From NCBI GenBank assembly GCA_965204575.1, contig OZ241993.1:1696001-1760000 (forward strand): a stretch of 64,000 bases of DNA. Direction: 5' to 3'. Source of the stretch: an uncultured candidatus Porisulfidus sp. Its GTDB lineage: Bacteria > Pseudomonadota > Gammaproteobacteria > Poriferisulfidales > Poriferisulfidaceae. Under the pieces are notes generated by a model. The model ran no database searches. It saw only the letters and a program-made list of their open reading frames with translations, and was not told the origin of the DNA. How positions within the stretch are numbered: the stretch's first letter is position 1; every line of letters starts with the position of its first letter. The position numbers and the translations under genes are program-made. Shown in pieces: positions 10-30,965 of the stretch.

Positions 10-1116
10 ATGATGCTGGAGGCTCTGCCCTCAGCTTTTACGAAAGACTACGATTATGGACTAGGCTTGGCAAAAAAATATCGATTTATCGTTGAATCGG
101 TAGAGGAACTCTCCGAATGTACCGAACTTGTAATTTCTAGTTGGCATGGCACAAAAATTGAATCAGAGGAAAAGCGTTTTTATCTCTCGTTCAGTGACTT
201 TGAAATTGCACGCAAATCCATCAATAATACGAACAGAATTTGTCAAACTTCCGCACGGTCTGTCAATACCTCAGTAACACACAATCTCTTGGCAGAACGG
301 ACAGGGCAACCAACAATTCCAGTACAAATCGGAAGGCACCCACTGCGTAAAAAAATTTCCGCAGCAGCTCAAGAGAATGAAGCATTGTCGAAAGAAGATC
401 AGGCAATGGTCCTAAAAATTATTCAGAAAAATGTGGACTCCATTGCCCTGGCAGAACCCAGCAAACTGTTCAAGCTTAAGCACGATATCGAACTCGCCAA
501 TCTTGAGACTCTGATTATTCGTTACAGAGAAATGATTTCTGCAAACACGCCTGAAGGCCATTGGCAAGCTTTCTTGAACGAGAATCCATTTGTTTTAAGT
601 TTAGCTTTTGGATACCCTGTGGTAATCACTCAAGATCAGGCGTCTGTTGGAGGAAGAAAGTTTTCTGGCAGCGGCGAAAGCATTGCTGACTATATGGTAA
701 AAAACAGCATGACTAATAATGTTGCAATTGTTGAAATTAAAACGCCCAAAACAAAACTTCTCAATGAAACGCCTCCTCGCACGGGAATATTTGCCCCATC
801 CACTAAACTTTCCGAAGCCATCAGTCAAGCTCTTGATCAGAAATATAAGCTTGAGCAAAATTTCGCACAACTCCAAGTGAATAGCAAAAAGTACGATATC
901 GAAGCCTACTCAATACACTGTTGCTTGGTCATCGGGACATTACCAACCGGTGAAGATAAGTTAAAATCATTTGAATTATTTCGGGGAAATTCTAAAAACG
1001 TTGAAGTTGTCACGTTTGATGAACTCTTAAAAAAACTAGAACAACTTAGAGAATTCCTGAATCTGCCTGATACAAGGCCACCCCCCCAAACTCAGCACAT
1101 TGAACCACCTTTTTAG
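10..1116 (+). CDS. sduA: Shedu immune nuclease (DUF4263), probably 5'-truncated by the window edge
   Basis: C-terminal WQAFLNENP, ADY, VEIKTP (PD-(D/E)xK) and LSEAISQ (ExxxQ), ending VEVVTFDELL. The frame is open back to base 1. Confidence 0.85.
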   Translation: MMLEALPSAFTKDYDYGLGLAKKYRFIVESVEELSECTELVISSWHGTKIESEEKRFYLSFSDFEIARKSINNTNRICQTSARSVNTSVTHNLLAERTGQPTIPVQIGRHPLRKKISAAAQENEALSKEDQAMVLKIIQKNVDSIALAEPSKLFKLKHDIELANLETLIIRYREMISANTPEGHWQAFLNENPFVLSLAFGYPVVITQDQASVGGRKFSGSGESIADYMVKNSMTNNVAIVEIKTPKTKLLNETPPRTGIFAPSTKLSEAISQALDQKYKLEQNFAQLQVNSKKYDIEAYSIHCCLVIGTLPTGEDKLKSFELFRGNSKNVEVVTFDELLKKLEQLREFLNLPDTRPPPQTQHIEPPF

Positions 1117-2359: not shown

Positions 2360-3049
2360 ATGGCCAACGAAACATCAAAGACACGCCTTGTTCGGGATGA
2401 AGATTTCGACGAGAAGTACCTGCGGGGAAAAGTTTTGGACATCGGCGCCGGTAAGGATCGGGTTTGTGCCAGTGCTGATGGATTTGACACTGATGACGGG
2501 GATGCCAATCAAATATTGGGGGTTCTGGAAAGAGAGTCTTATGACACGGTTTATTCCAGCCATTGTCTTGAGCACATGTTTGACCCCCCTCAAGCCTTGA
2601 AACAATGGTGGGAATTAATCAAACCCGATGGGTATCTTGTGCTCGTTGTTCCAGATGAAGATCTATATGAGCAAGGAATTTGGCCCAGCATCTTCAACAC
2701 GGACCACAAAGCGACTTTCCGTATGGACTCCGATCTTTCATGGTCGCCGGTCTCACATGATGTATGTTCTTTAGTTCGCTCACTGCCGAGAGCCACGGTG
2801 ATCTCCGTGGAAAGGCATGACATGCACTACGACTACCAGCTCATGGCCAAGCCAGGAGAGGCATGGAGACCGAAGACTTTCTTTGTCAAGTATTTGTACC
2901 GGATTGCACGTCAAATGCCCACAAAGATGAAACCTATTTGTCGCAAGTGGGTCGACCAATTCGCCCGATTCCGAAAAATTCCTGTCGACCAAACACTGGG
3001 ACCCGCATTGGCTCAGATACAAGTGGTCGCCCAGAAACAACAGATCTAG
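2360..3049 (+). CDS. Class I SAM-dependent methyltransferase
   Basis: VLDIGAG, YSSHCLEH and LIKPDGYLVLVVP motifs. Start moved to ATG 2360 (MANETS). Confidence 0.8.
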   Translation: MANETSKTRLVRDEDFDEKYLRGKVLDIGAGKDRVCASADGFDTDDGDANQILGVLERESYDTVYSSHCLEHMFDPPQALKQWWELIKPDGYLVLVVPDEDLYEQGIWPSIFNTDHKATFRMDSDLSWSPVSHDVCSLVRSLPRATVISVERHDMHYDYQLMAKPGEAWRPKTFFVKYLYRIARQMPTKMKPICRKWVDQFARFRKIPVDQTLGPALAQIQVVAQKQQI

Positions 3050-3080
3050 CCCGAGTTGCAGAACGCTGAAGAAAGTAAAA

Positions 3081-3824
3081 ATGCTTCCCAGACAATTCCA
3101 GCCAACCGCAACTTATGACCTAATCCGCCTGGGTAGAAACCATGATGGAGGATACCTTGTAGATCCAACATCGGTTGTTAAAGCAGAATCGCTGATTTCC
3201 TTCGGGCTTTCTACTGATTGGTCATTTGAAAAAGATTTTTTGGCCAAAAGCAACATTCCACTATTAGCGTATGACGGCACCATTGCAACAAAACATTTAT
3301 TTCGACGTGTCGTTAGAAATTTCTTGCAACTCAGATTACGAAAGCTATTTTTCTCAATCTGCACGCTTGTGGACTACTTCTCGTTTTTTAAGCACCCTCG
3401 CGTACATCATCGTCTTAATGTCGGATACGATTCTCAAAAATCCACTTCCTTATCATCCATTTTGCTGAAAGAACAACCTAAAACCCCAATTTTTGTCAAG
3501 ATGGACATTGAAGGTTCGGAATACCGAGTACTTGGCGACCTCCTAAAACATTCGTCAAGCATTAGCGGTTTGGTGGCCGAATTTCATGATGTCGATCTTC
3601 ACCAAGAGAGGATTTTAGATTTCATGAAAGAATTTCCCCTAACCCTAGTCCACATTCATAGTAATAATTGTGGTCAATTGGTCGATTCTGCCGGGGATCC
3701 AATTACACTTGAAATGACTTTCTCGGCGTCCCCCATCGAAATCGCTCCCCAGCCGTCAATCCCACATCCTCTCGATCAGGAAAACTGTCCGAACGAAAAA
3801 GACTTGCCGCTCGGATTCATCTAG
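3081..3824 (+). CDS. FkbM-like methyltransferase
   Basis: RLG..HDGGY, SFG...DWSFE, KMDIEGSEY, EFH and HIHSNN motifs. Confidence 0.75.
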   Translation: MLPRQFQPTATYDLIRLGRNHDGGYLVDPTSVVKAESLISFGLSTDWSFEKDFLAKSNIPLLAYDGTIATKHLFRRVVRNFLQLRLRKLFFSICTLVDYFSFFKHPRVHHRLNVGYDSQKSTSLSSILLKEQPKTPIFVKMDIEGSEYRVLGDLLKHSSSISGLVAEFHDVDLHQERILDFMKEFPLTLVHIHSNNCGQLVDSAGDPITLEMTFSASPIEIAPQPSIPHPLDQENCPNEKDLPLGFI

Positions 3825-5479: not shown

Positions 5480-7603
5480 CTACCAATGCATCTCTATGTA
5501 CTTGTGCGTTTCTTCAGAGTCAAGACAGCGAGAGGTATTTCCTGCACGAATATAGAACATTTTCTCTTTGCCGGATTCTTTTACAAATACCGGTTCAGGA
5601 GATCGTTCAACATCAATGATACAGACCGATTTGTCCTCAACATCTTCAAAGCGTATGCGGTAGCATTGCACAATAGCAACACCTATACTTTCGGAGATCA
5701 AATCAACTAGAAGGCGTTCGAAACGATCCCGCGATTGATTCACAAGCGCAAGATCTCTATCCAATCCCAAAACGCTTCCATCATCTTCCACCCCTATTAC
5801 CAAAGTGCCACCTTGCGAATTCAAGAATGCGGCGATTGTTTTTATAACAGACAACCGCAAAGCCTTATTCTGCTCATTTTTCACAATATCCCATTGGAGC
5901 GTACTCTTAAATTCGAGGACATAGCTCTCGCCATGCTGGACGATGTCTGTGATCGGTCTGAAAAAGGTTGGGTCATGGTCACTAATCAAACTATCCATGA
6001 ACTCATTGAGTTTTCGAGCTATGGTTTTCCGGCGAATTGCCAAAAAGTCCTTATAGTTTTCAACTGTCCATAGGCTAGGGTCCATGGGAACAAACTGTGC
6101 AGACAATGCGCCCGGGTAGTTCTCTTCGATCTTTGGGAGATATTCTTCAGGCAATTTGTTTTTTATTGATGCGGGTTCGGCAAGAAACGCCCGGTTTGCG
6201 ATTTCATTTACTGCTTGGCGCTGAATCCGATTCTCGGGGGACCAACCATTCTTGTAGAGGCGAGACTGCGGAAATATATGGATGTCATAAAACCCATCGT
6301 CTCTCGTTTGCCCCAGAGGAAGCCCATTGAACCAATCAACGGCCTGATGGGCTTTCGCTAAAATGTACGCCGCTGTGTAAAGCGGATTTTGAGAGCCTCG
6401 ACCCTCGAAATCCAAAGCCTTGACTTCAATGCGTCCACGTTGCTCAATGATATTCCCGCGAAGAGCCTCCCAAGGTTCAGTTTCCCTTACCACCAACTGA
6501 ACATCTGCTTCTAGTCGCTGGTCAGTCTGCGCAGTGTACCGGGACCACATGAGTGCGGCATACAACCAGTGGGAAGCATGGCGAATCGATTTTTCATTGG
6601 GAAACTGGCCATTATTCATTGAGAGGTAGACAATGAGGGGAATAAGCGCATTGCTCGTACTGAGATCGTAAGTAGAATGTATAAACATCTTCAGCGGGAG
6701 AATGGTCAGCAGATAATCCAATATCTTGGACAACTTGTCCCATCCATACTTCAATTCCTCGCGTGGACGCGAGTGAATCAATTCAAACAATGCACGATTT
6801 GTAACAGTTGTGGTTAACGCGCGCGTCATGAAAGTCAGTCCAAAATCAAATCCTTGATCGTTACAACTTTCCATCTTGGCTTTCAATTCACGTCTCGCCG
6901 CTGGCCATTTCCCAGTCATATGGGTCAGGGCAAGCTCAGCATCCGTCAGATGAGTTCCTTGCCTGTTCACTCTGTCGAAGATATCAATCGCTTCGTCCAA
7001 ATTGGCACTAGATGGCACCATTAATTCTGGAAGGTTGACGTCCTTAATCCTGCGAATTGAGTTGAGATTGTCCATCAGTAGTTGTGCCAATTCCATCGGG
7101 TCTTGCCCATCTTCGGCTTTTTCTTGGGCTATCTGGATGGGGCTAATTTCATTACTGTCTTCAAAGCAATCAGTCACTTGTTGCCAATAAGAATCGTCTT
7201 TCATTCGGGATGGCTGATAATATTGGAAGTCCAAGTTCCTTATATTTACGTAAAGATTGCGTGGATCATTTTCAATCTCATTTTCGGTGTAGTAGCACGG
7301 GATTTCGCCAATAATCAGCATGTGCAATGTCGTCAGACGTTGCTGACCATCAAGTAGAACTTGCACAGTGCCTATCTTTTCTGGCAGTGCCTTAATATTC
7401 TTAAGTTCAGGTGGGTTCTCCGTTTTCCATAACAACAAAACCCCAACAGGATACTCACGGGACAGTGAAATCATCAATTGTTTCGCTTGTTCCAAACTCC
7501 ATACATACTCACGCTGGAATTCTGGAAGCACAAGGTCATTCCTTTGAATGCAATCAAGTAGTTCACTAATTTTCATCTGGCTTGATTTTTTTATTGGACA
7601 CAT
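5480..7603 (-). CDS. GmrSD-like DUF262 protein with HNH-like region and C-terminal AlbA_2 (Schlafen-like) domain
   Basis: LPEFQREYVW, LLDGQQRLTT and FDRVN (DUF262); HIFP...IAN (DUF1524-like); ESYVLEFKS...FLNSQGGTLVIGVEDDG...YIRAG (AlbA_2). Confidence 0.85.
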   Translation of the reverse strand: MCPIKKSSQMKISELLDCIQRNDLVLPEFQREYVWSLEQAKQLMISLSREYPVGVLLLWKTENPPELKNIKALPEKIGTVQVLLDGQQRLTTLHMLIIGEIPCYYTENEIENDPRNLYVNIRNLDFQYYQPSRMKDDSYWQQVTDCFEDSNEISPIQIAQEKAEDGQDPMELAQLLMDNLNSIRRIKDVNLPELMVPSSANLDEAIDIFDRVNRQGTHLTDAELALTHMTGKWPAARRELKAKMESCNDQGFDFGLTFMTRALTTTVTNRALFELIHSRPREELKYGWDKLSKILDYLLTILPLKMFIHSTYDLSTSNALIPLIVYLSMNNGQFPNEKSIRHASHWLYAALMWSRYTAQTDQRLEADVQLVVRETEPWEALRGNIIEQRGRIEVKALDFEGRGSQNPLYTAAYILAKAHQAVDWFNGLPLGQTRDDGFYDIHIFPQSRLYKNGWSPENRIQRQAVNEIANRAFLAEPASIKNKLPEEYLPKIEENYPGALSAQFVPMDPSLWTVENYKDFLAIRRKTIARKLNEFMDSLISDHDPTFFRPITDIVQHGESYVLEFKSTLQWDIVKNEQNKALRLSVIKTIAAFLNSQGGTLVIGVEDDGSVLGLDRDLALVNQSRDRFERLLVDLISESIGVAIVQCYRIRFEDVEDKSVCIIDVERSPEPVFVKESGKEKMFYIRAGNTSRCLDSEETHKYIEMHW

Positions 7604-7852: not shown

Positions 7853-10318
7853 TTACTCCAAGGATTTGCTTTTGGACAATGTTGCGTAAATTGCCAGTCC
7901 CACCGAACTCCTGTGCTTCGTACTTCCGGAGGCAATGAGAAGGCGCCGCACACTGTTAGTGGTCAATCCACCAAAAGGAATTTTACAGGTGAATCTTGCT
8001 CTGAATTCATCTCCAGTTGAGCCACGCCTCTTCCTTGTATATGCGGCGCGAAAAGTCTCCCACTGATGAATAGACGCTTTACATTCTTTTTGCATTCGAC
8101 AGCACAACTGTTCCACCATGAGCGGACTATCATGACCTAGTTCATCCTCTATGGCGACCTTCATTTCTCTAAAAACGCGTCTAACCCCTTTCAATTTTCC
8201 TGCGCGGCGCAATTCAAACACGAAGCGAGGGTCCGTATCCATCAAGAAATTGACGCTCTCTACCGTTTGAGCCAATTTGCTCTTGCCTTCCAGTCTCGCG
8301 CCGTTAGAATCCAAAATCGCTCTCTCAATTTCCTTCCAGCGATGCTTGTTATCTGTAACGACAACCACTCCGGTCAATTGCGCTAAAAGTAGTCCTAATT
8401 CAAAATTGGGAGTAAGATTCAAGCGTATTAGTTGACCCTTCCCGAAAAGAATATCCTCTTGCAACAATGCTAGCGGGTCTCTGAGACGTTTATTTTTTAA
8501 ATGCTGGAGAATTTCAATCAATTCAGCTTCTGACATAGAGGGAAATTGCTGCTGGATTATTGCCCGTCGCTCCGATTCCGACATTGAAAATAGGATGTGT
8601 TCAGCATCCGCAAAGATTAATTCGCGCATATCTCCAACATTCGATTCGTCTAGAGTTTTACCGCGCAAGCGCTTTTTAGCCATATCCAGCACATCCTCCC
8701 GAAGGTGGGCATTGAAAACACTTGGGTCTGGAATCAAATTGATATAGCCAGCTTCAATAAATGGCATTAATTGCAATATCAAAAAAACGTTCTTAAGTGT
8801 CTCTTGCTTGTATTTATGCGGAATGTTGACTGGGCTGCATTCGGGCCTGATTCCAGCAGGATTTACAAATGGATTGATAATAATTACTTCATCAAAGTAG
8901 AGCGTCAGACTAGTCGCAAACTTCGTAGTCATTCTAGGATCGACAATTCCCGAATAAATTGCGCGAGAGATTTTTTTGTTAGGTGCCGGAAGCAAACTAT
9001 AAATATCAGTATCTATTGGCCATAAGAATCCAAATGCTTCGTGGATCTTCTTTACTTGTTCGTTCGACAAATTTTCTCGAATATCGCGCCAAGTTTTACC
9101 TTGCGACAATCCAAGAGTATTGCAAACAATATTCGCGAAAGCTATGTTTCGTTCACGAACACTAAGTTCAGTGAATGATGGTCTTTCATTTATAGGTATG
9201 TCCCGGCAACACTCTTTGTACCTCCTGCCACTGCCACACGGACATGGCTTATTGGGCCAAACCCAACCAGATGGAGGCTTTTTCTTTAAATGGTCATGGT
9301 TGCTGGTGGTACGGCCAAATGCATCTTGGTAATGAACCGAACCATCTTTGTACTCCACAAATATTTCGCCCCCAAAACGGTGCAATTCTTCTTCGGGAGG
9401 TCTAAGCACCAAGTTAAGATCAGACCAAGGCGCACTGACTCGGTTTTCTGGAAATAGCCAGCCTTTCTCATGTGCTGCAACATATCTTTTCGCTCTAGAT
9501 TTGATAATAAAATTAATCTGCTCAACCTCAGAATCCGTTAGGCTACGACATCGGATAAAGGCATCTGTTCTAGCAAGGCTCGGCGCGAAGTATCGGGGGT
9601 TAGTTCGTTTTTCTAAGGGGTCTTCGGTATCTGGATTACTTGCGTATTCAAGGCTAGTCAGGATGAGGCAATGGTTAAATCCTAACGGAAATATAGTTTG
9701 CGTTCCTTTTAGAGAGACATGCGGGTCATAAGGGTCACGACAATAATTGGAATCCGGTGGGCAAGCACTGTTATATGTTGTTACTGGATGATCCGAAATA
9801 ATAAATTTGACCGTGGAATTTTCCGCAGACACGATTTCCCTAACTCCTTCTGCCCAAATGGTACAGTTGAGGTTCCGCAAGTGTTGCATCTCTTCCATTA
9901 ACGCTACTTGATCCAGATTGATATATTCTTCCCTCAACCAAGCAAGTCCTTTAGGCGTCCGGATTTTTTGTGCATCAATATATTGGAAAAAATTTAAAAA
10001 GTGCTTGTGGCACTGTTCGAAATCTCCAGAAATAAATGCGCGAACCGCCAAACATCCAAATTGATCAATTGTTCCAAATAAGTGCCTTTCGATATCATCG
10101 TTAATCTCTGAACCAAAGAAAGTTGTATATAAATCGCGCAACATAAAGCCTTTCGAAGGCGGCAGGGCTTCAAGTTCATTTATCCAAATTGTTCGGCCAT
10201 CAGGCAACTTCCGACTAGCAGGGGTTTTATCTGCAAACCACAGCACGCCCGTGCCGCCACAAGAAAACCCTTTTTGGTACCATTTCGGCACGTAATGATT
10301 ATTCCTTGACTTTGACAT
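7853..10318 (-). CDS. DUF4238 domain protein with internal SEC-C zinc motif
   Basis: N-term NNHYVPKWYQKGF and FIISDHPV; CPCGSGRRYKECC. Confidence 0.75.
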   Translation of the reverse strand: MSKSRNNHYVPKWYQKGFSCGGTGVLWFADKTPASRKLPDGRTIWINELEALPPSKGFMLRDLYTTFFGSEINDDIERHLFGTIDQFGCLAVRAFISGDFEQCHKHFLNFFQYIDAQKIRTPKGLAWLREEYINLDQVALMEEMQHLRNLNCTIWAEGVREIVSAENSTVKFIISDHPVTTYNSACPPDSNYCRDPYDPHVSLKGTQTIFPLGFNHCLILTSLEYASNPDTEDPLEKRTNPRYFAPSLARTDAFIRCRSLTDSEVEQINFIIKSRAKRYVAAHEKGWLFPENRVSAPWSDLNLVLRPPEEELHRFGGEIFVEYKDGSVHYQDAFGRTTSNHDHLKKKPPSGWVWPNKPCPCGSGRRYKECCRDIPINERPSFTELSVRERNIAFANIVCNTLGLSQGKTWRDIRENLSNEQVKKIHEAFGFLWPIDTDIYSLLPAPNKKISRAIYSGIVDPRMTTKFATSLTLYFDEVIIINPFVNPAGIRPECSPVNIPHKYKQETLKNVFLILQLMPFIEAGYINLIPDPSVFNAHLREDVLDMAKKRLRGKTLDESNVGDMRELIFADAEHILFSMSESERRAIIQQQFPSMSEAELIEILQHLKNKRLRDPLALLQEDILFGKGQLIRLNLTPNFELGLLLAQLTGVVVVTDNKHRWKEIERAILDSNGARLEGKSKLAQTVESVNFLMDTDPRFVFELRRAGKLKGVRRVFREMKVAIEDELGHDSPLMVEQLCCRMQKECKASIHQWETFRAAYTRKRRGSTGDEFRARFTCKIPFGGLTTNSVRRLLIASGSTKHRSSVGLAIYATLSKSKSLE

Positions 10319-10394
10319 TTCTGATGAATTCCATAGCACCCAAAGCGCGATCTTTGACTGGTTGCTCCGTGATTGCAGGATTTGGAAAATTCCC

Positions 10395-10904
10395 TTACAG
10401 AAGAGTTTTAAAGCTAGTTACTTTTGATCTGGAGCGATGTCTTTGTGCCCATTCAATGAGGAGTTGATCCGCATCTTCCAAGGTCATTTGGCCGTTGCGG
10501 ATAAGGCCAACAATTAAGTCTTCTGTCTGGCAAAACCGCAAGCCCTTGCTTCGCCGCTCCCCCTCTGTACGTGCCCTCCTATCCTGAACCCCCGCCACCA
10601 AGTTTCGAGTAATCGCTACTGCAAGAACGGCGCATTCACCAGCATCCAATCGACCGCTGGCGTGCAGATTGGCAAAAAGTTCCACCTCTTTAACATCTGT
10701 TACCCGCTCGAAATCAAAAATGCCTGAACTGATCGCTTTCTGTAGGGCTTTTTTCTGTTCCGGCTGTGTTATTTCTACGAGCACTTGATCAAGAAGTAGG
10801 ACCCGAAATCCAGCATGTCCCAACAGGCCAACACGTCCAACCTTCAAAAAATTCAAAAGTATCGACGTGTCGATTACTACTGTGGGCGGATTCTGCTGTG
10901 GCAC
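10395..10904 (-). CDS. PIN-domain ribonuclease (DUF3368-like toxin)
   Basis: VVIDTSILLNF, V..EI and LDAGE..LAVA...QDRRAR motifs. GTG start at 10904 follows GGAGGAG. Confidence 0.75.
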   Translation of the reverse strand: MPQQNPPTVVIDTSILLNFLKVGRVGLLGHAGFRVLLLDQVLVEITQPEQKKALQKAISSGIFDFERVTDVKEVELFANLHASGRLDAGECAVLAVAITRNLVAGVQDRRARTEGERRSKGLRFCQTEDLIVGLIRNGQMTLEDADQLLIEWAQRHRSRSKVTSFKTLL

Positions 10905-10923
10905 TGCTGACTTAACTCCTCCA

Positions 10924-12168
10924 TCACAACCCCACAGCTTCCGCCAAATCAAGCGTCATTTCATCATCGATGTGAAGCAATCGGCCTATTTCTAGAAGTC
11001 GATTCTGCGAAATTTCCCCACGCCGCCAAGCTTCCAAGGCAAGCGGCAGGATTTGCCATTTCAAATCATGATCTTCATGGTTTTCTGCCGGGGCTTGACT
11101 TTCTTCTCCCTCCAGCATCTCGTTGGTTTGAAGCGCGTCTAAGTAGCATCTGGCCATGTCCGTTTGATCCAGCAGGATTTTCGCTTCATGCGCACTTATG
11201 ATGTTTAGGCCTCGCAATCTCCAAACTGCGGCCGAATAGCTTACTCCGAAATTCCGGCCGAATAAGGCAACATCTGGGTAGGTAATATGTTGCGACCGTG
11301 GCGGCACACGCAGTTCCCCTCGAACAACCTGCTCTTCCACACTATCCATAACCGTCTCTTCGCGACGTGAACTACGGCCCTTGCCAAGTTCGTATATGAA
11401 ATCCCTCGCACCGGCTTCCGGAACCAGAAATGCTGCCGCAAAGGCATTTGCTCGTTGCTCTCTCACATGCTTGGCGTTATGTCGGCTAGTAACGGTAGCC
11501 TGATGAGCCCTATCCATCAGAGCATGTCCATATTCATGAGCATAGGAGAACCGCTGACGCACTGGCGATTGCCCTCCATTGACTAGAATTCCCATACCAA
11601 ACTCTAGGCTCTTCAAGAAAAGCCCAGATACCTCGTCGGATAATTGCAAGGCAGCAGTCCAAATTCCTTGGGACCCAATAAGCTTGGGAATTGAGAATAT
11701 TGGTGCCAAGCCAAGCCCGAGACGCCGCCGTTCCTGGTTGGCCACATCTTGACCCTGTGCAATCGCGAGCCCCGTTGACCGAGGTTCTGGAAGCTCATAA
11801 CGAGGCAACACGCCCATGGAAACTCGGCCAAGTAAATTTACTAGGGAGGCACCCGCAGAAAACAGGCGAATACAGTGTCTGGCCTGTTTCTCCACTGCTT
11901 CATTTTCTAAACTCGGTTCAGCTCGAAATAGAGCAAAGACAGGATCTTCGAGCGGCGCATCTGGATTCACAAACCACTCAACAGAGCGACCATACAATTC
12001 AGCAAGGCGCATTAGTTCTAGCGTGGAAACTTGGCGTTTCCCTGACTCCATCAAACTAATTGCTGAACTCTGGAGTCCGACTCCAGCCGCCACTGCGCTT
12101 TGGGTAAGCCCTCGACTCTCACGGGCGACCCGTAGCCGCTCTCCAAATTGTTTAGTGCTGATTGGCAT
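10924..12168 (-). CDS. XRE HTH fused to an ImmA/IrrE Zn-metallopeptidase
   Basis: N-term XRE HTH (RGLTQ..VA...AISLMESGKR); RQRFSYAHEYGH (HExxH), EQRANAFAAAFL, FGVS. GGAGG precedes the ATG at 12168. Confidence 0.9.
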   Translation of the reverse strand: MPISTKQFGERLRVARESRGLTQSAVAAGVGLQSSAISLMESGKRQVSTLELMRLAELYGRSVEWFVNPDAPLEDPVFALFRAEPSLENEAVEKQARHCIRLFSAGASLVNLLGRVSMGVLPRYELPEPRSTGLAIAQGQDVANQERRRLGLGLAPIFSIPKLIGSQGIWTAALQLSDEVSGLFLKSLEFGMGILVNGGQSPVRQRFSYAHEYGHALMDRAHQATVTSRHNAKHVREQRANAFAAAFLVPEAGARDFIYELGKGRSSRREETVMDSVEEQVVRGELRVPPRSQHITYPDVALFGRNFGVSYSAAVWRLRGLNIISAHEAKILLDQTDMARCYLDALQTNEMLEGEESQAPAENHEDHDLKWQILPLALEAWRRGEISQNRLLEIGRLLHIDDEMTLDLAEAVGL

Positions 12169-12253
12169 GTCCCTACCTCCTCTGAGAAGATTTTCACATC
12201 CCATAGATCAATTTTTCCATACAATGCATGAAATTACAAGTTTTTGGATAAAA

Positions 12254-12282
12254 TTGACATTTTAGATTAGATAATCTAAAAT
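12254..12282 (+). promoter_or_regulatory. Sigma70 promoter overlapped by a palindromic operator
   Basis: TTGACA (12254-59), 17 bp, TAAAAT (12277-82). Perfect inverted repeat ATTTTAGATTA-GA-TAATCTAAAAT at 12259-12282. Confidence 0.75.
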
Positions 12283-12445
12283 TTTTAGCAGCCAATTTCA
12301 AAAATGAAAATGCAACCAATACTCTGGAGAAAAAAAGAAAATGGCAAAAAAAAATGGAATGGATGGATTATTCGGGAGGGCGGCACGCCACCCCAACCTG
12401 CGCATGTGCTAAACACAAATTTAAGTGCAAAAGGAGGTGGTGAAT

Positions 12446-12562
12446 ATGAGAAGAATTAAATGTAGGTGTTTACGGACACGTCGGAGATCCGGACGAAAAG
12501 TTGTTCGTGTACGGTCACATGTTCGGTCTAGGCCGGGCTCAATTTCTAGGCGCTGCCGGTAA
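12446..12562 (+). CDS. 38-aa arginine-rich micropeptide (below the ORF-track cutoff)
   Basis: AAGGAGGT 7 nt before the ATG. Translation MRRIKCRCLRTRRRSGRKVVRVRSHVRSRPGSISRRCR. Confidence 0.6.
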   Translation: MRRIKCRCLRTRRRSGRKVVRVRSHVRSRPGSISRRCR

Positions 12563-12643
12563 GTGGCAGATTTGATTAACCGTGGCGTGCCGCTCCCCGA
12601 AACCGTTTCAATCTCAAACATCTGAAGAAAATTACATCATCCC

Positions 12644-13879
12644 TCAGGTCACTGCCCTTTGCATGGACAACACCACCCGCGTAAACCCTCCGGACACCTC
12701 GAACGAAGGTGCCGGCAGACGGAATTCTTCGACCTGCGCGAGCGCCTTGTCAATTCCGCTGCCGCGGTCCTCGCTGAAACCGAAACGGCGCATCAGGGAA
12801 ACCAGCGCCTCGTTGCGCGACCGCGGAGGCATGTCGACCAGACGGAGTTTATCGAGCAAGGGTTCGCCGGGGTTCGTAATCTCGACCCGGCTGTCGAAAA
12901 TCTCCACCATCGGGCCTGCCCCCGTCACGGTGAAATCCTGATGGATGAGCGCATTCGTGACCAATTCACGTACCGCGAGCGGGGGATACGCGAAGACCGT
13001 CCTGCGCAAGGCTCCCTTGATTACCTCGCGACTCGGCAACAGGTCGTCAATGTGGCCCGTGACCCCGCGAAGCCCCGCCGCATATCCCATGCCGTGGGAC
13101 CGCTCGACCGCGCTTCCGGTTCGGTCGTCCCCCGAATACTGAATCACCCGCATGGACTTCCGCCCGAGCCCGGGGAACTCATTGAGATCCTTGGCAAGGA
13201 GGGTCGCTCCAAGGTTGAGGATGTCCCAGCCCCCCGCATCGCACTGGCGGATCAGGCCGTCTCCGGCCAAGGCATCCATGATGCCGCTGCGGCTTTCCGG
13301 CAGCGGAAGGTCTAACAGGTCGAAATAGACCGGATAGTCGAGCAGGCGGAACACCTCGTCCGGAGCCATGTTCTCCAGACACGTCATGGCCTCGAACCGG
13401 GTCCGGTCGAAGGCGCGCCACAATGCCCTCTCTTTTTCCGGGACATTCCTCAGAGGCTTTGTCGTGCTTCCCACCCGCACGTAGTCCATTCCGTTGAAAC
13501 GCACTGGGTGGCGGGCGGCGCAGGCGATTTCCAAAACGACCAACGGCTTTCCATCAAAATCGATGGGATGGAAGCTGAAGTCGATTTTCGGCTCCAGCAA
13601 TCGGAGCAGCCAAGTCTCCAAAGGTTCATTGCCCTTCTTCGCGTGCTGCGGGGAGAACTTCGTGCCGACCGGCACATGCGTATCATCCTCCACGCCCCAG
13701 ACCACATACCCGTATGGCCGGTCATTCAATGTCGCTGCATTGGCCAGCGCTGAGATGTATTCCCCGATCTCCCTCGGATCGGCCTTGTCGCGCTTGAATT
13801 CCAACCACTCCGTCTCGGGCTGGCGGCACAGCGTTCGTGCAAGGTCGGCGAGATAGGCTGCTGTGCGTTGAGGGCTCAT
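12644..13879 (-). CDS. AlbA_2 + HATPase_c_4 (RecG C-terminal-like) ATP-binding protein, probably C-terminally truncated
   Basis: ETEWLEFK, ISALAN, VWGVED; AVRELVTNALIHQDF, VEITNPG, SRNE, EDRGSGI. Ends abruptly at a composition shift. Confidence 0.8.
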   Translation of the reverse strand: MSPQRTAAYLADLARTLCRQPETEWLEFKRDKADPREIGEYISALANAATLNDRPYGYVVWGVEDDTHVPVGTKFSPQHAKKGNEPLETWLLRLLEPKIDFSFHPIDFDGKPLVVLEIACAARHPVRFNGMDYVRVGSTTKPLRNVPEKERALWRAFDRTRFEAMTCLENMAPDEVFRLLDYPVYFDLLDLPLPESRSGIMDALAGDGLIRQCDAGGWDILNLGATLLAKDLNEFPGLGRKSMRVIQYSGDDRTGSAVERSHGMGYAAGLRGVTGHIDDLLPSREVIKGALRRTVFAYPPLAVRELVTNALIHQDFTVTGAGPMVEIFDSRVEITNPGEPLLDKLRLVDMPPRSRNEALVSLMRRFGFSEDRGSGIDKALAQVEEFRLPAPSFEVSGGFTRVVLSMQRAVT

Positions 13880-14083
13880 GTCGCGATTTCCCCTGAACAT
13901 AAAGAGAATCAGGGTATCCATTGTATAAGCACGACCCGCACGTTTGGCAAACACACAAGCGGAAGCCGCCCTGCACGAGGAGGCAGGATTCCGGTTTCGA
14001 ACACGCACCTGGAATCGGGATGAAGAATCTCCTGCGCGGTTTCAATCAAACAACCATCAAGCAAATATTTTTCTATAAAATCA

Positions 14084-14101: not shown

Positions 14102-14325
14102 TATAATATTCCTTTATTTTTTATCAGAAATAATGGATTTTCTATCAAACAAACTTTAGGGTTCCGGGTTATGGGCAATATGAGAACCCCAACCTTCTGG
14201 AACCGCGAGAGCCCCTCACCCTGTTTTCCACCCTCGTCTCCCATACTCATACTGTGGCGGAAGCCCTGAACCCTGTAAACTAATTGGAACCGCATCGCCT
14301 GATTTTCCGTACTGTAGTTTTCGAG

Positions 14326-16785
14326 ATGGGCAACAAAACACCTCCTCAATCACCTGACCCCCCATCAGACCAGAGCGACGTTCCGGCCATCAGGAAACGT
14401 CTTGCCGAACTCTCTGCCGAGCAGCGCGAACTGGAAGCACAACTCGCCGACCTGACCCGCCGACCATCACGCAAGCATCGTCCTGTCGCTCCCGCCAGAC
14501 AAGTGACCTGTGCGTCTCCCCCGGCCGAAAAAATCACCCTGTTCCGCTCCCTGTTCCGGGGACGGGAAGATGTCTTCCCCAAGTTCTGGATCAACACGAA
14601 AAGCGGGAAGTCAGGCTACTCGCCAGCCTGCGCCAACGAGTGGAAGCCCGGGCTGTGCCGCAAGCCAGCCATCAAATGCGGGGAATGCCCCAACAGCGCC
14701 TTCGCCCCGGTGACCGACGCGACCATCGAGCAGCACCTGCGCGGAAGCAACTCGAAAGACCAGGATTTCATGATGGGCATCTATCCCATGCTGACCGACG
14801 AGACCTGCTGGCTTCTGGTCGCCGACTTCGACGGAGACGCATGGCGCCGCGATGCTTTCGCCTTTCTCGAAACCTGCCAAATGCGGAATATCCCCGCTTC
14901 CCTTGAACGCTCCCGTTCCGGAAGCGGCGGCCATGTTTGGATCTTCTTTTCGGAACCCGTCCCGGCCACCCTGGCCCGCCGCTTCGGAACGCGACTTCTG
15001 GCCGAAACCATGGAACGCAGGCCGGAGGTCGGGTTCGGCTCCTACGACCGCTTCTTCCCCAGTCAGGACACCCTGCCGAATGGAGGATTTGGGAACCTGA
15101 TCGCCCTGCCCCTGCAGAAGCGGCCTAGGCAGGACGGCCACAGCCTGTTCGTGGACGAGAAATTCCAGCCTTATGCGGACCAGTGGGAATACCTGTCTTC
15201 GATACGGCGCCTGACCTTGCAAGAGATAGCTGCCCATCTGGAGGAAACCCAGCCATCGGAGTACCTGCCCGGCCTGCATCTGCCCACGAGCGAGGAAGAC
15301 GAAAAGGGTCCCTGGCTGATTCCTCCGTCCCGGGAAAAGCCCAAGATCCCTATCACTGGCCCTCTCCCGGAAACAATCGACATGGTGCTGGGGAATCAGG
15401 TGTACATTGACCGGAGCGGACTGCCCCCGGCTCTAGCGAACCGGCTCCTTCACCTGGCTGCATTCCAGAATCCAGAGTTCTACCAAGCCCAAGCCGTGCG
15501 CCGCTCCACTTTCGGCATCCCCCGAATCATAGGATGCGCAGAACTGCATTCGCGCCATATCGCCCTTCCCCGCGGCTGCCTTGAGCCGGCCGAATCGCTA
15601 CTGTCCTCGCTGGGCATTCGGGTCGCGTTCAGCGATAAACGCAACCCCGGACGCCCCATATCGGTTTCTTTCCTTGGCGAACTGACGCCGGAACAGCAGG
15701 AAGCAAAAGACGCCCTGCTGCCACATGAAACCGGAGTCTTGGCAGCAACCACCGCTTTCGGCAAAACCGTCGTCGCCTCCTCCATCATCGCTGCCCGAAA
15801 AACGAACACCCTGATTCTTGTTCACCGCCGCCAACTTCTCGACCAGTGGGTCGCGCGACTCCAGACCTTCCTGAACATCTCCGATGGCGAGGTCGGAAAA
15901 ATCGGCGGCGGCAAGCGAAATCCGGGCAGCATCGTGGATGTCGCGATCATCCAAAGCCTGGTACGGAAAGGAGAGGTCGATGATCTCGTCTCGGACTACG
16001 GCCAACTGATCGTCGACGAATGCCACCATCTGGCTGCCGTGAGTTTCGAGTCAGTCGCGCGCCGTTGCAGGGCCCGCTATGTTCTCGGACTGTCCGCCAC
16101 GGTCACACGGAAAGATGGCCACCATCCCATCATCTTTATGCAGTGCGGCCCGGTACGTTATCGCGCGAACGCCCGGAAACAGGCTGCCCGGCTGCCGTTC
16201 AGCCATCGGGTGGATGTCCGGCACACCGGGTTTGTCCCTCCTTTGGAAATGGCTGACGAACCACCACCCATCCAACAGGTCTACGCCACCCTGGCCCAAA
16301 GCGAAAAGCGAAACGACATGATCTTCGATGATATTCTGTCGGCCCTTGAAGCCAAGCGGTCGCCTCTAGTCCTGACCGAGCGGAGGGACCATGCGCTGTA
16401 TCTGGCCACACGACTTGCGCCCTTCGCCCGTAACGTCATTGTCCTGCACGGTGGCATGGGGGTGAAAGCCAGACGGACTACGATGCAGAAGCTGGAAAAC
16501 ATCGGAGACCGGGAAGAGCGATTGCTGATTGCCACAGGTCGCTACATCGGCGAAGGTTTCGATGACGCTCGACTGGATACGCTGTTCCTGACTATGCCGG
16601 TTTCCTGGCGTGGAACACTCGCGCAATACGCCGGTCGCCTGCATCGAATCCATCCGGGTAAACGCGAAGTCGTCATTTACGATTATGTCGATGACGCCAT
16701 GCCCGTGCTGGCCCGCATGAGCGACAGGCGGGCAAAAGGCTACGCCAGTTTGGGCTACTCGGTCAATAATCGTCAGGCATCATAG
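14326..16785 (+). CDS. AEP (TOTE-type) primase-like domain fused to an SF2 DEAD/H helicase
   Basis: LFRGREDV, ADFD, ERSRSG.GGHVWIFF, GNLIALPLQ; ATTAFGKT, DECHH, GLSAT, GEGFD, QYAGRLHR. Confidence 0.85.
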   Translation: MGNKTPPQSPDPPSDQSDVPAIRKRLAELSAEQRELEAQLADLTRRPSRKHRPVAPARQVTCASPPAEKITLFRSLFRGREDVFPKFWINTKSGKSGYSPACANEWKPGLCRKPAIKCGECPNSAFAPVTDATIEQHLRGSNSKDQDFMMGIYPMLTDETCWLLVADFDGDAWRRDAFAFLETCQMRNIPASLERSRSGSGGHVWIFFSEPVPATLARRFGTRLLAETMERRPEVGFGSYDRFFPSQDTLPNGGFGNLIALPLQKRPRQDGHSLFVDEKFQPYADQWEYLSSIRRLTLQEIAAHLEETQPSEYLPGLHLPTSEEDEKGPWLIPPSREKPKIPITGPLPETIDMVLGNQVYIDRSGLPPALANRLLHLAAFQNPEFYQAQAVRRSTFGIPRIIGCAELHSRHIALPRGCLEPAESLLSSLGIRVAFSDKRNPGRPISVSFLGELTPEQQEAKDALLPHETGVLAATTAFGKTVVASSIIAARKTNTLILVHRRQLLDQWVARLQTFLNISDGEVGKIGGGKRNPGSIVDVAIIQSLVRKGEVDDLVSDYGQLIVDECHHLAAVSFESVARRCRARYVLGLSATVTRKDGHHPIIFMQCGPVRYRANARKQAARLPFSHRVDVRHTGFVPPLEMADEPPPIQQVYATLAQSEKRNDMIFDDILSALEAKRSPLVLTERRDHALYLATRLAPFARNVIVLHGGMGVKARRTTMQKLENIGDREERLLIATGRYIGEGFDDARLDTLFLTMPVSWRGTLAQYAGRLHRIHPGKREVVIYDYVDDAMPVLARMSDRRAKGYASLGYSVNNRQAS

Positions 16786-26966: not shown

Positions 26967-29699
26967 TTAGCGTCGCGCGGCAGCTGAAAGGCGACGAAAC
27001 TCTGGAAAGTCGCTAAGAGCTGGGGCTACCGACAAGATTTGATCTAGTGCATCGGACAAGTCATCAGGAATAATGTCGTCTTCGGAAGTTCCTATAGTCG
27101 AATCAAGTAACCGCAAAAATGCCCTTGCTTTAGGCTCATCGTCAATGAGTACAAGTTTCTTTATCCCATTTTCATCGCCATAAAGATCGTAATCAATCAT
27201 TGACCAGCATCTAAATGGCACCAGAAAACGTTCAATTAAATCTACAGTCTCGGCAAAAGCAGTCTTGGAGGTGGCAGGCAAAACTGCTAACGCACGACTA
27301 ATATCTGGTGTAGTCAGAGAGCGTTCTTGTGGCCACACATTTTGGAGGAAAGGTTTCGCGGATAAACGAAACAGGTCTTCTGCCGACAACACAGTGCCAT
27401 TTTCGAGTTCCTTTCCAGAAAGATCCTGTATAAATCGCCGAATAGTATCAGCCGCTGCTACACGAGTTTCACTGTCAGAGGATCGGAGCATTTGTTGAAT
27501 GCGAGAGTTAGCGACCGCTGGTTCACCGCTTTCTCGTAAAGCATGTAGGGAATCGACAACGAGACTAAAAACGAGGCTTTCTCGCTCATCACGACCGAGT
27601 CGCTGATCAGTAACCTTGTTGACCATATCAGGGCCAATAATTTCTAAGACTTCGGCATATTGCCTCTGTCGTGCGACAGAGACCCAAAGAACTAGAGATT
27701 CTTCTCCATCTTCTTGAAGAGGAGAGATCAAATGCTTTTTTGTCCAAGCAAGGTCAGCACGAAAAAAATACGGTAAGTGCTCAATCAATCGGTATCTTGC
27801 AATCAAACCACTCTGGCCTTTAGCTTGTATTACTTTATTTCGCATTTGGCGCAACGCACTTCTGGGCGTAAAAGGATTCATGCTTTTCTTTAGTCTGGGA
27901 CATGCTGCTAGAAATACGCCAATGAGTCTTCCTGATGGTGTGTTAAGCGTATCAATATCTTTAACCTGTTGATTGTCTCCCTCAGAAACAGGCCAAACAT
28001 TCAAATTTATATCATCTTCTGGTTCACGCTCAGCGTTAGTCGCTTCAACAGCAATTGGCCAAATTCGCAACCAAACTGGTGTCCCTAAAGGCGACGCGAC
28101 AACTTGTCTATCCCAAGCACCCAACCAACTGCTAATACCTGCGATAGCGCTTGACAGAGTTGACTTAGACAGTTTTTTTAACAGTATGAGGACTCGTTCT
28201 GCTTCAATTATTGAGTCGCGCCGCAAAATCTTTTCTTCCACAGGCTGCTCAGGTCTGTGTCTCCAGCCAAAGCCACCCCACACATGCGGAAATTCATTCT
28301 TATCGCTCTGAATAGACTCTAGGTCCTCAAGAATAAGGGTTGCTTTCCCTGGTTGCTGCAACCAAGCATCTGCTGCCGCTGCAGAATCATTGTCCCAACT
28401 GTTCTGCTCACTCCCCAAAGCCTTTTCTAAAGCGTGGAGGCGTTGACCTCCTTGGAGAAAATCGTACTGATCATCGGGATGAGAAATTACCCTAGAGGCT
28501 TCAGGACATTCAGGGAAATCCTCTTCCAGAGTCATCCCAGAAAGATCAGGAAATTGCGTGATTTCTGCCTTCAGCCAAGTCTGCGCTTTATCTGACAACT
28601 TGCCCCCTGCCAACTCTATGCGCCTTAATTCCCGAAGAATCCAACGTAGGCGTATGTTTTCTATCCTCTCCAGACCTAATTCTTTTGCCCAATAGCGATG
28701 TGGTGGGCCTTTCCGGAGTCGGGTAATTATGGCTTTTTGTGTTTGATGGCTGAAGGCAGAATAACGTCGTGCTCGGAGTGCAGAAATTTCTGGATATTGC
28801 CTAGTATCCCAAAACTGATTTAGATCAAGTTCAGAAAAAAATGTTTCAACCTCCTCTGCTAGCGCCAAGGAAGGATCCAGTGCAGTAGCAGCCCATAACC
28901 GAGCATGGACGGGAGAACTACTGAAAAGCCAACGTTGGACAAATGGTCGTGCTGACGTGCTTCTCAATTTCGCGAGATGTACTACAACAGCATAAAGAAG
29001 CTTGACTACGGGGGCTATGCCGCGACTATAAGCATCAGGTTCAATTCTCTCGTAAAAGCCATGAGTTTGTTGTCCGTAGCCCGCCCAACGTAGTTGACCT
29101 AATCGAAAAGACCACTTCATGCCATCCCAGCCGATTCGGCGAGCGATGTTTAATCCACGGTTCATGGCAGCATCAAGTCCATCTGCCAAAGCAATCAAAA
29201 ACGAAATTTCTTCGATCTCTTCCAAGTCCAAGTAATTCAAAATAGTAAGTCTATTGCTCGTTAATCCCGCCCATAGTAAGTGGTCGAATGTCCTAGGGCG
29301 ATGAGGTTTTTTAATTTCCCCGTACAGCGAAGGTCCAACTGGCTTAACTTCTAGATATGGTTCAACAGAGTTCACAATTTGAGAGATGATCGCACCAGAT
29401 CTATCTCCATCTTCAAGTCGTTTTTGGATAATTGCCATTGATACGTCATCATCAACGAATTCATGAGACCAGCTTTCTTCAATTAATCGCCACGCACTTC
29501 TCCAAGGTTCGGCGATTTTGCGCCCGTCCATCCCATTTAATACACGAATGATTGCCATTCGCTCAACATGCTGGCTTGGGCTCAACTGTAATGCCCATTC
29601 GATTGCATCGGAATCAGTAAGTCGATTTTTCACAAAGGAAACAACCGTCCAAAATGTTGTTTGGTCTTTGCCCGTGAGAATAACTTGGTCAGAAATCAC
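26967..29699 (-). CDS. Dsr1-like helical C-terminal part, encoded as a separate ORF
   Basis: C-term PF.Q.VWPQERSL.TP..S..LA and L..ALDQI..AP.L...FRRL resemble Dsr1 C-termini from recall. GGAG plus GTG start at 29699 (alternative ATG 29717). Confidence 0.65.
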   Translation of the reverse strand: MISDQVILTGKDQTTFWTVVSFVKNRLTDSDAIEWALQLSPSQHVERMAIIRVLNGMDGRKIAEPWRSAWRLIEESWSHEFVDDDVSMAIIQKRLEDGDRSGAIISQIVNSVEPYLEVKPVGPSLYGEIKKPHRPRTFDHLLWAGLTSNRLTILNYLDLEEIEEISFLIALADGLDAAMNRGLNIARRIGWDGMKWSFRLGQLRWAGYGQQTHGFYERIEPDAYSRGIAPVVKLLYAVVVHLAKLRSTSARPFVQRWLFSSSPVHARLWAATALDPSLALAEEVETFFSELDLNQFWDTRQYPEISALRARRYSAFSHQTQKAIITRLRKGPPHRYWAKELGLERIENIRLRWILRELRRIELAGGKLSDKAQTWLKAEITQFPDLSGMTLEEDFPECPEASRVISHPDDQYDFLQGGQRLHALEKALGSEQNSWDNDSAAAADAWLQQPGKATLILEDLESIQSDKNEFPHVWGGFGWRHRPEQPVEEKILRRDSIIEAERVLILLKKLSKSTLSSAIAGISSWLGAWDRQVVASPLGTPVWLRIWPIAVEATNAEREPEDDINLNVWPVSEGDNQQVKDIDTLNTPSGRLIGVFLAACPRLKKSMNPFTPRSALRQMRNKVIQAKGQSGLIARYRLIEHLPYFFRADLAWTKKHLISPLQEDGEESLVLWVSVARQRQYAEVLEIIGPDMVNKVTDQRLGRDERESLVFSLVVDSLHALRESGEPAVANSRIQQMLRSSDSETRVAAADTIRRFIQDLSGKELENGTVLSAEDLFRLSAKPFLQNVWPQERSLTTPDISRALAVLPATSKTAFAETVDLIERFLVPFRCWSMIDYDLYGDENGIKKLVLIDDEPKARAFLRLLDSTIGTSEDDIIPDDLSDALDQILSVAPALSDFPEFRRLSAAARR

Positions 29700-30897: not shown

Positions 30898-30965
30898 GTG
30901 TAAATAAGTTTCAATACGCCTGTGTCTACCCTCATTGATGAACAGTTCGAAATCCTGCAATGACT

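Follow-up and report, generated by a model that had tools for sequence, protein, structure and literature searches.

An RmrA-like repressor-peptidase and PIN nuclease gene pair in a Porisulfidus defense island, with a family-type operator and a probably stranded outward promoter

The DNA analyzed here, 64,000 nucleotides (nt) of contig OZ241993.1 from an uncultured candidatus Porisulfidus sp. (the whole stretch is called the window below), carries at 10395-12562 a regulator gene resembling rmrA, a gene for a PIN nuclease, and a promoter that faces away from both and is overlaid by a palindromic operator. We read this as a two-gene module of a known kind, an RmrA or CapH-CapP-fusion regulator with a PIN partner, whose cargo promoter is stranded and whose adjacent 38-codon open reading frame (ORF) most likely does not count among its conserved functional parts; the probability that we attach to this reading is about 0.6. 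Sequence comparison gives good support to both the operator and the outward promoter, and conservation gives none to the micropeptide that the ORF would encode. An earlier note on this DNA had proposed a three-part switch in which derepression of the outward promoter yields the Arg-rich peptide. Its description of the gene pair, the palindrome, and the promoter has held up, and the peptide as a conserved third part has not.

As judged from profile matches and the predicted structure, the regulator combines, in one polypeptide, a repressor domain of the XRE type and a zinc peptidase like those of ImmA, IrrE, and CapP (RmrA of RosmerTA; a "CapH-CapP fusion"). The XRE-type helix-turn-helix (HTH) spans residues 7 to 66 and the M78 peptidase, with its HEYGH motif, residues 167 to 261. 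Pfam returned HTH_3 (6.5e-11), HTH_31 (2.8e-11), and Peptidase_M78 (1.9e-14), and in PADLOC 15 RmrA models matched (best, 1.6e-26), together with weaker matches to capP (1.8e-13) and capH (7.3e-8). Within this HExxH motif, H211, E212, and H215 are invariant across 40 aligned regulator sequences. The AlphaFold2 model has a predicted local distance difference test score (pLDDT) of 78.6, with low confidence at residues 265-291; it consists of helices alone over residues 235-413, and no beta-strand is predicted beyond residue 228. The closest match in Foldseek was Thauera CapP (7t5t; E 9.3e-5 over 206 columns), followed by IrrE/PprI (3dti; 5.7e-4), while the HTH part resembled restriction-modification controller proteins (C-proteins), ImmR (7t8i), and the N-terminal domain of CapH (7t5u; TM-score of 0.83, normalized to the target). 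Pfam, PADLOC, and Foldseek thus agree with the earlier description of an HTH and ImmA/IrrE/CapP-like metallopeptidase followed by a PIN nuclease; the start proposed for the regulator at 12204 is replaced by the ATG at 12168, which has a GGAGG Shine-Dalgarno site. The top PDB sequence match of the regulator family, over the peptidase core (E 2e-10), is chain A of 9vzy, a 393-aa "HTH cro/C1-type domain-containing protein" that may be a solved RmrA-like protein; the entry is absent from the Foldseek matches listed for the regulator model.

The PIN gene lies 19 nt downstream of the regulator gene on the same strand. It most likely starts at GTG 10904, in agreement with the point at which homologs begin to align; an alternative longer frame from TTG 10952 runs into the end of the upstream gene. 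The protein itself has no Pfam match, weak matches to PIN_6 (10) and PIN (6) were seen among 28 family members, and a PDB sequence search with the family returned 0 matches. In PADLOC the protein matched PDC-S70 (5.2e-10), which is described, in the part of the source at hand, as a single-gene PIN-domain candidate system (PMC12988326). Its AlphaFold2 model (pLDDT, 89.1) gave 19 Foldseek matches in the PDB at E <= 0.001, led by 1y82, VapC15 (4chg), and VapC4 (5h4h) with values of 2.7e-5 to 1e-3. Acidic residues D12, E44, and E90 are invariant in 28 PIN sequences and D108 and D129 are conserved in at least 90% of them; by analogy, these would form the active site.

Relatives of the regulator are numerous. 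At least 1628 were found among 8000 scored candidates. When one genome per species was scanned, 505 relatives were confirmed, and 80 loci were kept from these as the comparison set (the relatives in what follows). Many of these loci come from uncultured-bacteria records titled Latescibacterota, Entotheonella, Binatia, Porisulfidus, or Alphaproteobacteria, and regulator homologs P0002-P0005 are 84-86% identical to the window regulator (74-86% for P0002-P0009). A PIN homolog directly follows the regulator on the same strand in 66 of the 80 loci. Of the 14 PIN-less loci, two (L018 and L057) have no downstream ORF of at least 60 aa and a third (L019) has a single ORF of 74 aa, the DNA being short at these places. 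The rest have different downstream ORFs, six of which were scanned with Pfam: GmrSD (L001), pentapeptide-repeat (L004 and L016), AAA (L008), and KAP NTPase (L020) domains were found, and there was no match in L021.

This arrangement is like RosmerTA in that an antitoxin with HTH and Zn-peptidase domains adjoins a variable toxin gene and in that close relatives differ in the partner, which may be a PIN, GmrSD, pentapeptide-repeat, AAA, or KAP NTPase protein. It differs in that the toxin is a PIN nuclease, which PADLOC files under a single-gene candidate even though the gene is paired with rmrA in the window and in most relatives. By analogy, the PIN protein may be a toxin neutralized by RmrA, with the pair defending against phage. 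Another precedent is offered by the three-component systems of HTH-COG2856 (DUF955) and PIN proteins (Makarova 2009; Matelska 2017): in the portions of these papers at hand, gene pair and order match exactly, with an Xre-COG2856 fusion and a PIN toxin in one predicted operon, and HTH-COG2856 fusions are linked to both PIN and RelE toxins (PMC2701414, PMC5499597). The difference is that the PIN protein of the window matches no Pfam PIN model. An ImmA-domain antitoxin hub and its association with a PIN-like domain have also been described, in the part of the source consulted (PMC10440598). The module itself is ordinary: exchange of partners of this sort is published in these three sources, the HTH-peptidase and PIN pairing has been in print since 2009, and control of defense operons in the manner of CapH/CapP is established.

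The perfect 11-bp inverted repeat that the earlier note saw over the spacer and -10 of the divergent promoter is present at 12259-12282. Its arms, ATTTTAGATTA at 12259-12269 and TAATCTAAAAT at 12272-12282, are 11 nt long, 100% complementary, and 2 nt apart; this 24-bp element has no second match in the window when up to 3 mismatches are allowed, nor any in 100 shuffles. Nested in it at 12266-12280 is a palindrome of 13 to 15 bp, ATTAGATAATCTAAA, which is the operator of the family type. The shared element around GAT[AT]ATC emerged from a reading of the upstream 220 nt in the 30 closest loci, and the search area was the 250 nt upstream of each of the 80 homologous genes (20 kb). GAT[AT]ATC had 31 matches in these 20 kb, distributed over 26 of the 80 loci, versus 66 in 666 kb elsewhere in the loci (1.55 versus 0.099 per kb). 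A weight matrix with a threshold of at least 8 bits found 82 upstream matches, in 66 of the 80 loci, versus 76 in 665 kb elsewhere; the 82 include the 31 training sites, and the independent enrichment is about 22-fold. Across these measures, the motif is enriched 16- to 36-fold upstream of the homologous genes. Its extended consensus is the palindrome GTTCGAT-N-ATCGAAC, read as TTAGATAATCTAA in the window, where the operator has the best matrix score in the 64 kb (16.8, with the runner-up at 11.4). We infer from this phylogenetic footprinting that the HTH domain binds 12266-12280.

Long perfect palindromes do not share this distribution. Arms of at least 9 nt were found upstream in 1 of the 80 loci (L041), and the conserved signal is therefore the motif and not the long perfect repeat. 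Accordingly, the expectation that a conserved palindrome would stand beside homologous loci is right for the operator motif and wrong for the repeat as first delineated. The repeat of L041, perfect and with 14-nt arms (CACTCTACCCTGCA and TGCAGGGTAGAGTG), lies 51 nt upstream of the regulator start, between the promoter region and the gene, and is unrelated to the family operator.

The divergent promoter, recognized from the outset as near consensus (TTGACA-17-TAAAAT), agrees with the consensus at 11 of 12 positions and is the best promoter-like site in 10200-12900, a region whose 4 such sites are not above the number in shuffles (2.0; standard deviation, 1.5). The distance from its -35 to the start codon of rmrA is 86 nt. 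Among the relatives, 18 of 80 loci have a promoter of at least 10 of 12 positions that faces away from rmrA, and the operator covers the spacer or -10 in 12 of these 18; the -35 of such away-facing, operator-covered promoters is mostly 83-109 nt from the regulator start (139 nt in L059). A divergent promoter under an operator, as the earlier note had it, is thus a recurrent design of the family, and from the shared design and distance we conclude that the plus-strand promoter of the window is the family's outward promoter and not an oddity.

Toward rmrA, promoters of at least 10 of 12 positions were found in 39 of the 80 loci, with the operator over the spacer or -10 in 21 of the 39. The window has two candidates in this direction. 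The proximal one scores 8 of 12 plus the TG of an extended -10, which is below what the promoter scan lists, and its counterpart in the nearest relative (L001) reads TTGAGA-17-TGG-CAAAAT. The other is a 9/12 site whose -10 falls inside the palindrome; this site has no conserved counterpart in L001, whose homology with the window stops at about 12283. It is less certain that the HTH domain would also control its own operon, by way of either the 12301-12273 site or the proximal 12239-12211 site.

In the relatives, genes behind the away-facing promoter, where they can be named, belong to CBASS (patatin effector and cyclase) or are other defense genes. On the divergent side of L049, a patatin-like CBASS effector (1.5e-98) is followed by a CD-NTase cyclase (7.8e-114). 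L032 and L071 each have a directly divergent cyclase, L079 has a kinase-like protein on that side, and others have proteins of unknown family; a patatin, whole or partial, is on the divergent strand in 13 loci. The earlier assignment of this promoter to a peptide does not, then, extend to the family. In the window, about 355 nt remain past position 12289 or so before the 3' end of a convergent gene for an AlbA_2 and HATPase_c_4 protein, and nothing but the 38-codon ORF lies between; there is no defense operon. With no such cargo behind it, the outward promoter of the window is most likely stranded, by cargo loss or by cassette exchange.

Side observations on these neighbors concern where the patatin lies and a protein without a family. 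In L003 (5781-6626), L006, L012, and L013, a patatin follows the PIN gene on the same strand and is not on the divergent side; that of L003 is a patatin-like CBASS-type phospholipase (PADLOC, 2.7e-81). A divergent-side protein of about 390 aa is common to five loci (L038, at 2592-3764, L044, L028, L046, and L061). It has no Pfam and no PADLOC family in the three that were scanned (L038, L044, and L061), and in L038 and L044 it stands behind an operator-bearing promoter, which makes it a candidate for an unknown cargo.

The nearest relative among the 80 loci, L001, is from a Candidatus Porisulfidus record and has a regulator 90% identical to that of the window. The DNA alignment of the two runs through the palindrome and ends at about 12283, just past the -10. 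Upstream, L001 has a pair of genes for a FitA-like ribbon-helix-helix protein and a PIN protein (VapBC-like; L001:2813-3843), and downstream a GmrSD gene (HEC-06; L001:5283-7112) takes the place of the PIN gene, so that both junctions between L001 and the window fall at the ends of the regulator cassette. Likewise, when 1520 upstream ORFs were clustered, those of the window fell into no cluster with any from the 80 loci. From the ends of homology and the unshared neighbors, it follows that the regulator and its control region amount to a cassette whose neighbors can be exchanged.

For ImmA/ImmR, IrrE/DdrO, and CapP/CapH, activation of the peptidase and loss of the repressor are established. 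By analogy with these pairs, we picture the module as follows. The rmrA gene would be cotranscribed with the VapC-like PIN gene, and the HTH domain, bound to the palindromic operator over the spacer and -10, would keep the outward promoter shut in unstressed cells. DNA damage or phage infection would activate the peptidase; with the repressor lost, the outward promoter would open, and the antitoxin may release the PIN toxin. In relatives, the corresponding promoter drives CBASS or other defense genes, and in the window, where no cargo is seen, it most likely no longer serves any.

This scheme is close to CapH/CapP, with which the module shares an HTH repressor and an ImmA/IrrE-like peptidase, the closest solved fold, and, in L049, L032, and L071, a position back to back with CBASS genes. 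In the available part of the original account, capH and capP are upstream of and on the strand opposite to defense operons, a capH-capP fusion is found in 15 CBASS systems, and in one DISARM system the neighbor of a CapH-CapP fusion is a vapC-like gene (bioRxiv 10.1101/2022.04.27.489752). The window differs in that no defense operon stands behind the outward promoter. It also differs in the order of predicted parts, which is HTH, peptidase, and helices, with no C-terminal GAF-like domain such as the one described for Thauera CapP in the same part of that source. ImmR/ImmA of ICEBs1 and phage cI-like switches are alike in having an operator-bound repressor between back-to-back promoters that is inactivated by a dedicated M78 peptidase, but no integrase, excisionase, or phage genes are near here and the setting is a defense island. 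What does not appear in the parts of the RosmerTA account at hand is an operator-covered outward promoter with defense cargo, as seen in our relatives.

Several observations weigh against the reading of a known two-gene module with a stranded promoter. The matrix was trained on upstream sites, which somewhat inflates the enrichment, and the promoter scans are consensus matching only. The window has a single strong operator site, and what the proximal rmrA promoter carries is a degenerate copy at best; autoregulation is therefore less clear than in the relatives. Furthermore, both the promoter (11/12) and the perfect palindrome are intact here, whereas the corresponding stretch of L001, with no ORF behind it, is AAGACA ... 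TAATAC and its repeat is degraded. Since decay is to be expected of a promoter that is out of use, that of the window may be in use or recently acquired. Finally, the ORF has a perfect Shine-Dalgarno sequence, AAGGAGGT, at the ideal spacing of 7 nt before its ATG, an octamer that occurs twice in the window and precedes a start codon only in this copy. Among 5000 dinucleotide shuffles of 12283-12643, 87 produced GGAGG together with a start and a closed ORF at least 30 codons long, and none of the 5000 had in addition 30% Arg or more (random open stretches in the shuffles had a mean of 8.7% and a maximum of 26.7%).

On these last points would rest the proposal that the outward promoter expresses a lineage-specific cargo, an Arg/Cys-rich peptide of 38 aa that binds nucleic acid or the ribosome and on derepression is toxic or modulates the PIN nuclease, which we regard as rather unlikely. 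The near-consensus promoter with an operator over it and the terminator-like hairpin over the stop codon also speak for it, as does the better preservation of promoter and palindrome than in L001. The ORF is just as first described, running from ATG 12446 to TAA 12562 with 15 Arg, 2 Lys, 3 Cys, no Asp or Glu, and the segment VRVRSHVRSRP, and its GTG-start form of 45 aa ranks 2nd by Arg fraction among the 671 ORFs of the window. Such composition does recur in the window, though: stop-free stretches of 38 aa with at least 15 Arg number 23 of 57,938, some overlapping the ORF itself, and comparably Arg-rich off-frame ORFs are found elsewhere (for example, 31244-31402, with 34.6% Arg).

The searches for homologs argue further against a peptide cargo. 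Searched by phmmer against 1.84 billion representative proteins, the peptide had 0 matches, and the 45-aa form had no homolog either; Pfam returned nothing at E up to 10 and PADLOC nothing, the best Atlas score (0.78) is inside the tool's stated noise range, and the exact sequences of four small spacer ORFs are absent from a collection of 15 billion proteins. The comparison by tBLASTn with homologous loci that the earlier note had called for gave scattered Arg-rich frames only (E >= 0.017) in the 80 loci, none at the expected place. A composition scan of the same loci for basic small ORFs with a Shine-Dalgarno site picked out L002 only, where the ORF is off-frame within a 132-aa frame, and L001 has no such ORF past the palindrome. 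Neither tBLASTn, nor the clustering of upstream ORFs, nor the composition scan thus revealed a relative of the peptide at the 80 loci, whose nameable cargo consists of full-size defense proteins, and a literature search on arginine-rich small proteins with ImmA in an antiphage context turned up nothing relevant among the titles and abstracts listed. It is doubtful, in our view, that the ORF encodes a real peptide. The fuller proposition, an RmrA-type switch whose repressed cargo is a 38-aa, 39%-arginine, cysteine-bearing micropeptide or a structured RNA carrying it, released on DNA damage or infection, strikes us as improbable. If true, the micropeptide would be the smallest effector known for the CapH-CapP-fusion/RmrA class of regulators, and a real small ORF would point to micropeptide effectors under damage-responsive control, which on present evidence is a minority reading. 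A separate candidate, a pseudogene remnant in which the Arg-rich frame is the off-frame of a dead gene, is not supported: six-frame stop-free segments of 12284-12660 had no matches in the loci or the window, and a protein-like +1 frame of 41 aa had nothing at E up to 1 against longer proteins, a search that is itself weak evidence.

Possibly, the plus-strand promoter is there by chance, as a by-product of a palindromic, AT-rich operator that serves only the autoregulation of rmrA and PIN, as a type II toxin-antitoxin or abortive-infection pair, with nothing useful transcribed rightward. By symmetry, the arm ATCTAAAAT gives the -10, the 9/12 promoter toward rmrA overlaps the same palindrome, L001 has no good promoter at the same place, and 62 of the 80 relatives have no strong promoter facing away. 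Yet the TTGACA lies outside the family operator, and its exact 17-nt spacing would be a further coincidence. In addition, 12 of the 18 away-facing promoters in relatives are operator covered, mostly at the same distance, and several drive named defense genes. We therefore consider an accidental promoter unlikely.

Least probable, and very unlikely in our estimate, is a structured noncoding RNA as the cargo, a transcript of about 300 nt from 12289 that would fold by way of the long-range 17-nt stem (12375-12391 with 12582-12598): the predicted fold of 12289-12625 is more stable than shuffles (-105.4 versus -87.7 kcal/mol, standard deviation 5.1; z -3.47; 0 of 100 as stable), but a z near -3.5 from one sequence counts as weak evidence, all Rfam matches stayed below the gathering score (three at E 3.3-8.7, far under the thresholds), a second copy is found in neither the window nor the loci, and plasmids and phages gave no match. 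The idea of a repeat or mobile element at 12375-12598 was rejected: the segment occurs once in the window, matches nothing in the plasmid and phage collections, and shows no target-site duplication, and the ORF is free of tandem repeats.

For the module with a stranded promoter, then, what goes a little beyond the published accounts, as far as the parts of them at hand extend, is that a large subfamily of fused regulators, from several phyla and mostly from records of uncultured genomes, has a concrete operator consensus, GTTCGAT-N-ATCGAAC. The same holds for the wiring of one regulator-PIN pair back to back to CBASS, kinase-like, and other genes, and for the window as a case of an intact cargo promoter with its cargo missing. 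Given that the cassette breakpoints fall right at the operator, the regulator and its two promoters act as a portable unit with partners exchangeable on both sides. The features of the module and its setting are collected in Table 1.

Table 1. Coordinates of the regulator-PIN module, its control region, and neighboring genes in the window
Feature	Position	Strand	Remarks
PIN (VapC-like) nuclease gene, 169 aa	10395..10904	-	most likely start, GTG 10904
rmrA-like gene, 414 aa	10924..12168	-	N-terminal XRE-type HTH, M78/ImmA-IrrE peptidase, all-helical C-terminal region
Candidate proximal rmrA promoter, TTGTAA, 17-nt spacer, TGG + AAAAAT	12211..12239	-	TTGTAA 12239-12234, TGG-AAAAAT 12219-12211; predicted from sequence
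Divergent promoter, TTGACA-17-TAAAAT	12254..12282	+	-35 12254-12259, -10 12277-12282; operator over spacer and -10
Family-type operator, core palindrome TTAGAT-A-ATCTAA	12266..12280	.	weight matrix; inside 24-bp repeat 12259-12282
Alternative promoter-like site toward rmrA, TTGAAA-17-TAGATT (9/12)	12273..12301	-	-10 inside palindrome
Predicted A-rich 5' leader of divergent transcript	12289..12445	+	short direct repeats at 12299-12362
17-nt inverted repeat bracketing ORF	12375-12391 / 12582-12598	+	88% complementary, 190 nt apart
Shine-Dalgarno (12431-12438) and 38-codon Arg-rich ORF (12446-12562)	12431..12562	+	unconserved
Terminator-like hairpin over stop codon	12553-12569	+	
Shedu SduA	10-1116		PADLOC 1.9e-138
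GmrSD_N + AlbA_2 protein	5480-7603		HEC-05, 2e-45
DUF4238 + SEC-C protein, 828 aa	7853-10339
AlbA_2 + HATPase_c_4 protein	12644-14008		convergent with outward promoter
TOTE-type AEP primase fused to helicase	14284-16785		PF22548, 1.1e-97
Dsr1-like SIR2 protein, two overlapping ORFs	26967-29717, 29689-30969	-

The window is a defense island, as its neighboring genes indicate. Of the two overlapping Dsr1-like ORFs, the SIR2 part comprises 426 aa (Dsr1, 1.9e-47) and the C-terminal part 916 aa (Dsr1, 7.9e-17), and the pair is either a split gene or a frameshift. The G+C content steps up at about 12400-12800, from approximately 0.45-0.52 over 7.6-12.6 kb to 0.60-0.63 over 12.8-13.8 and 14.4-16.6 kb; in composition, the rmrA-PIN cassette is thus unlike the genes to its right.

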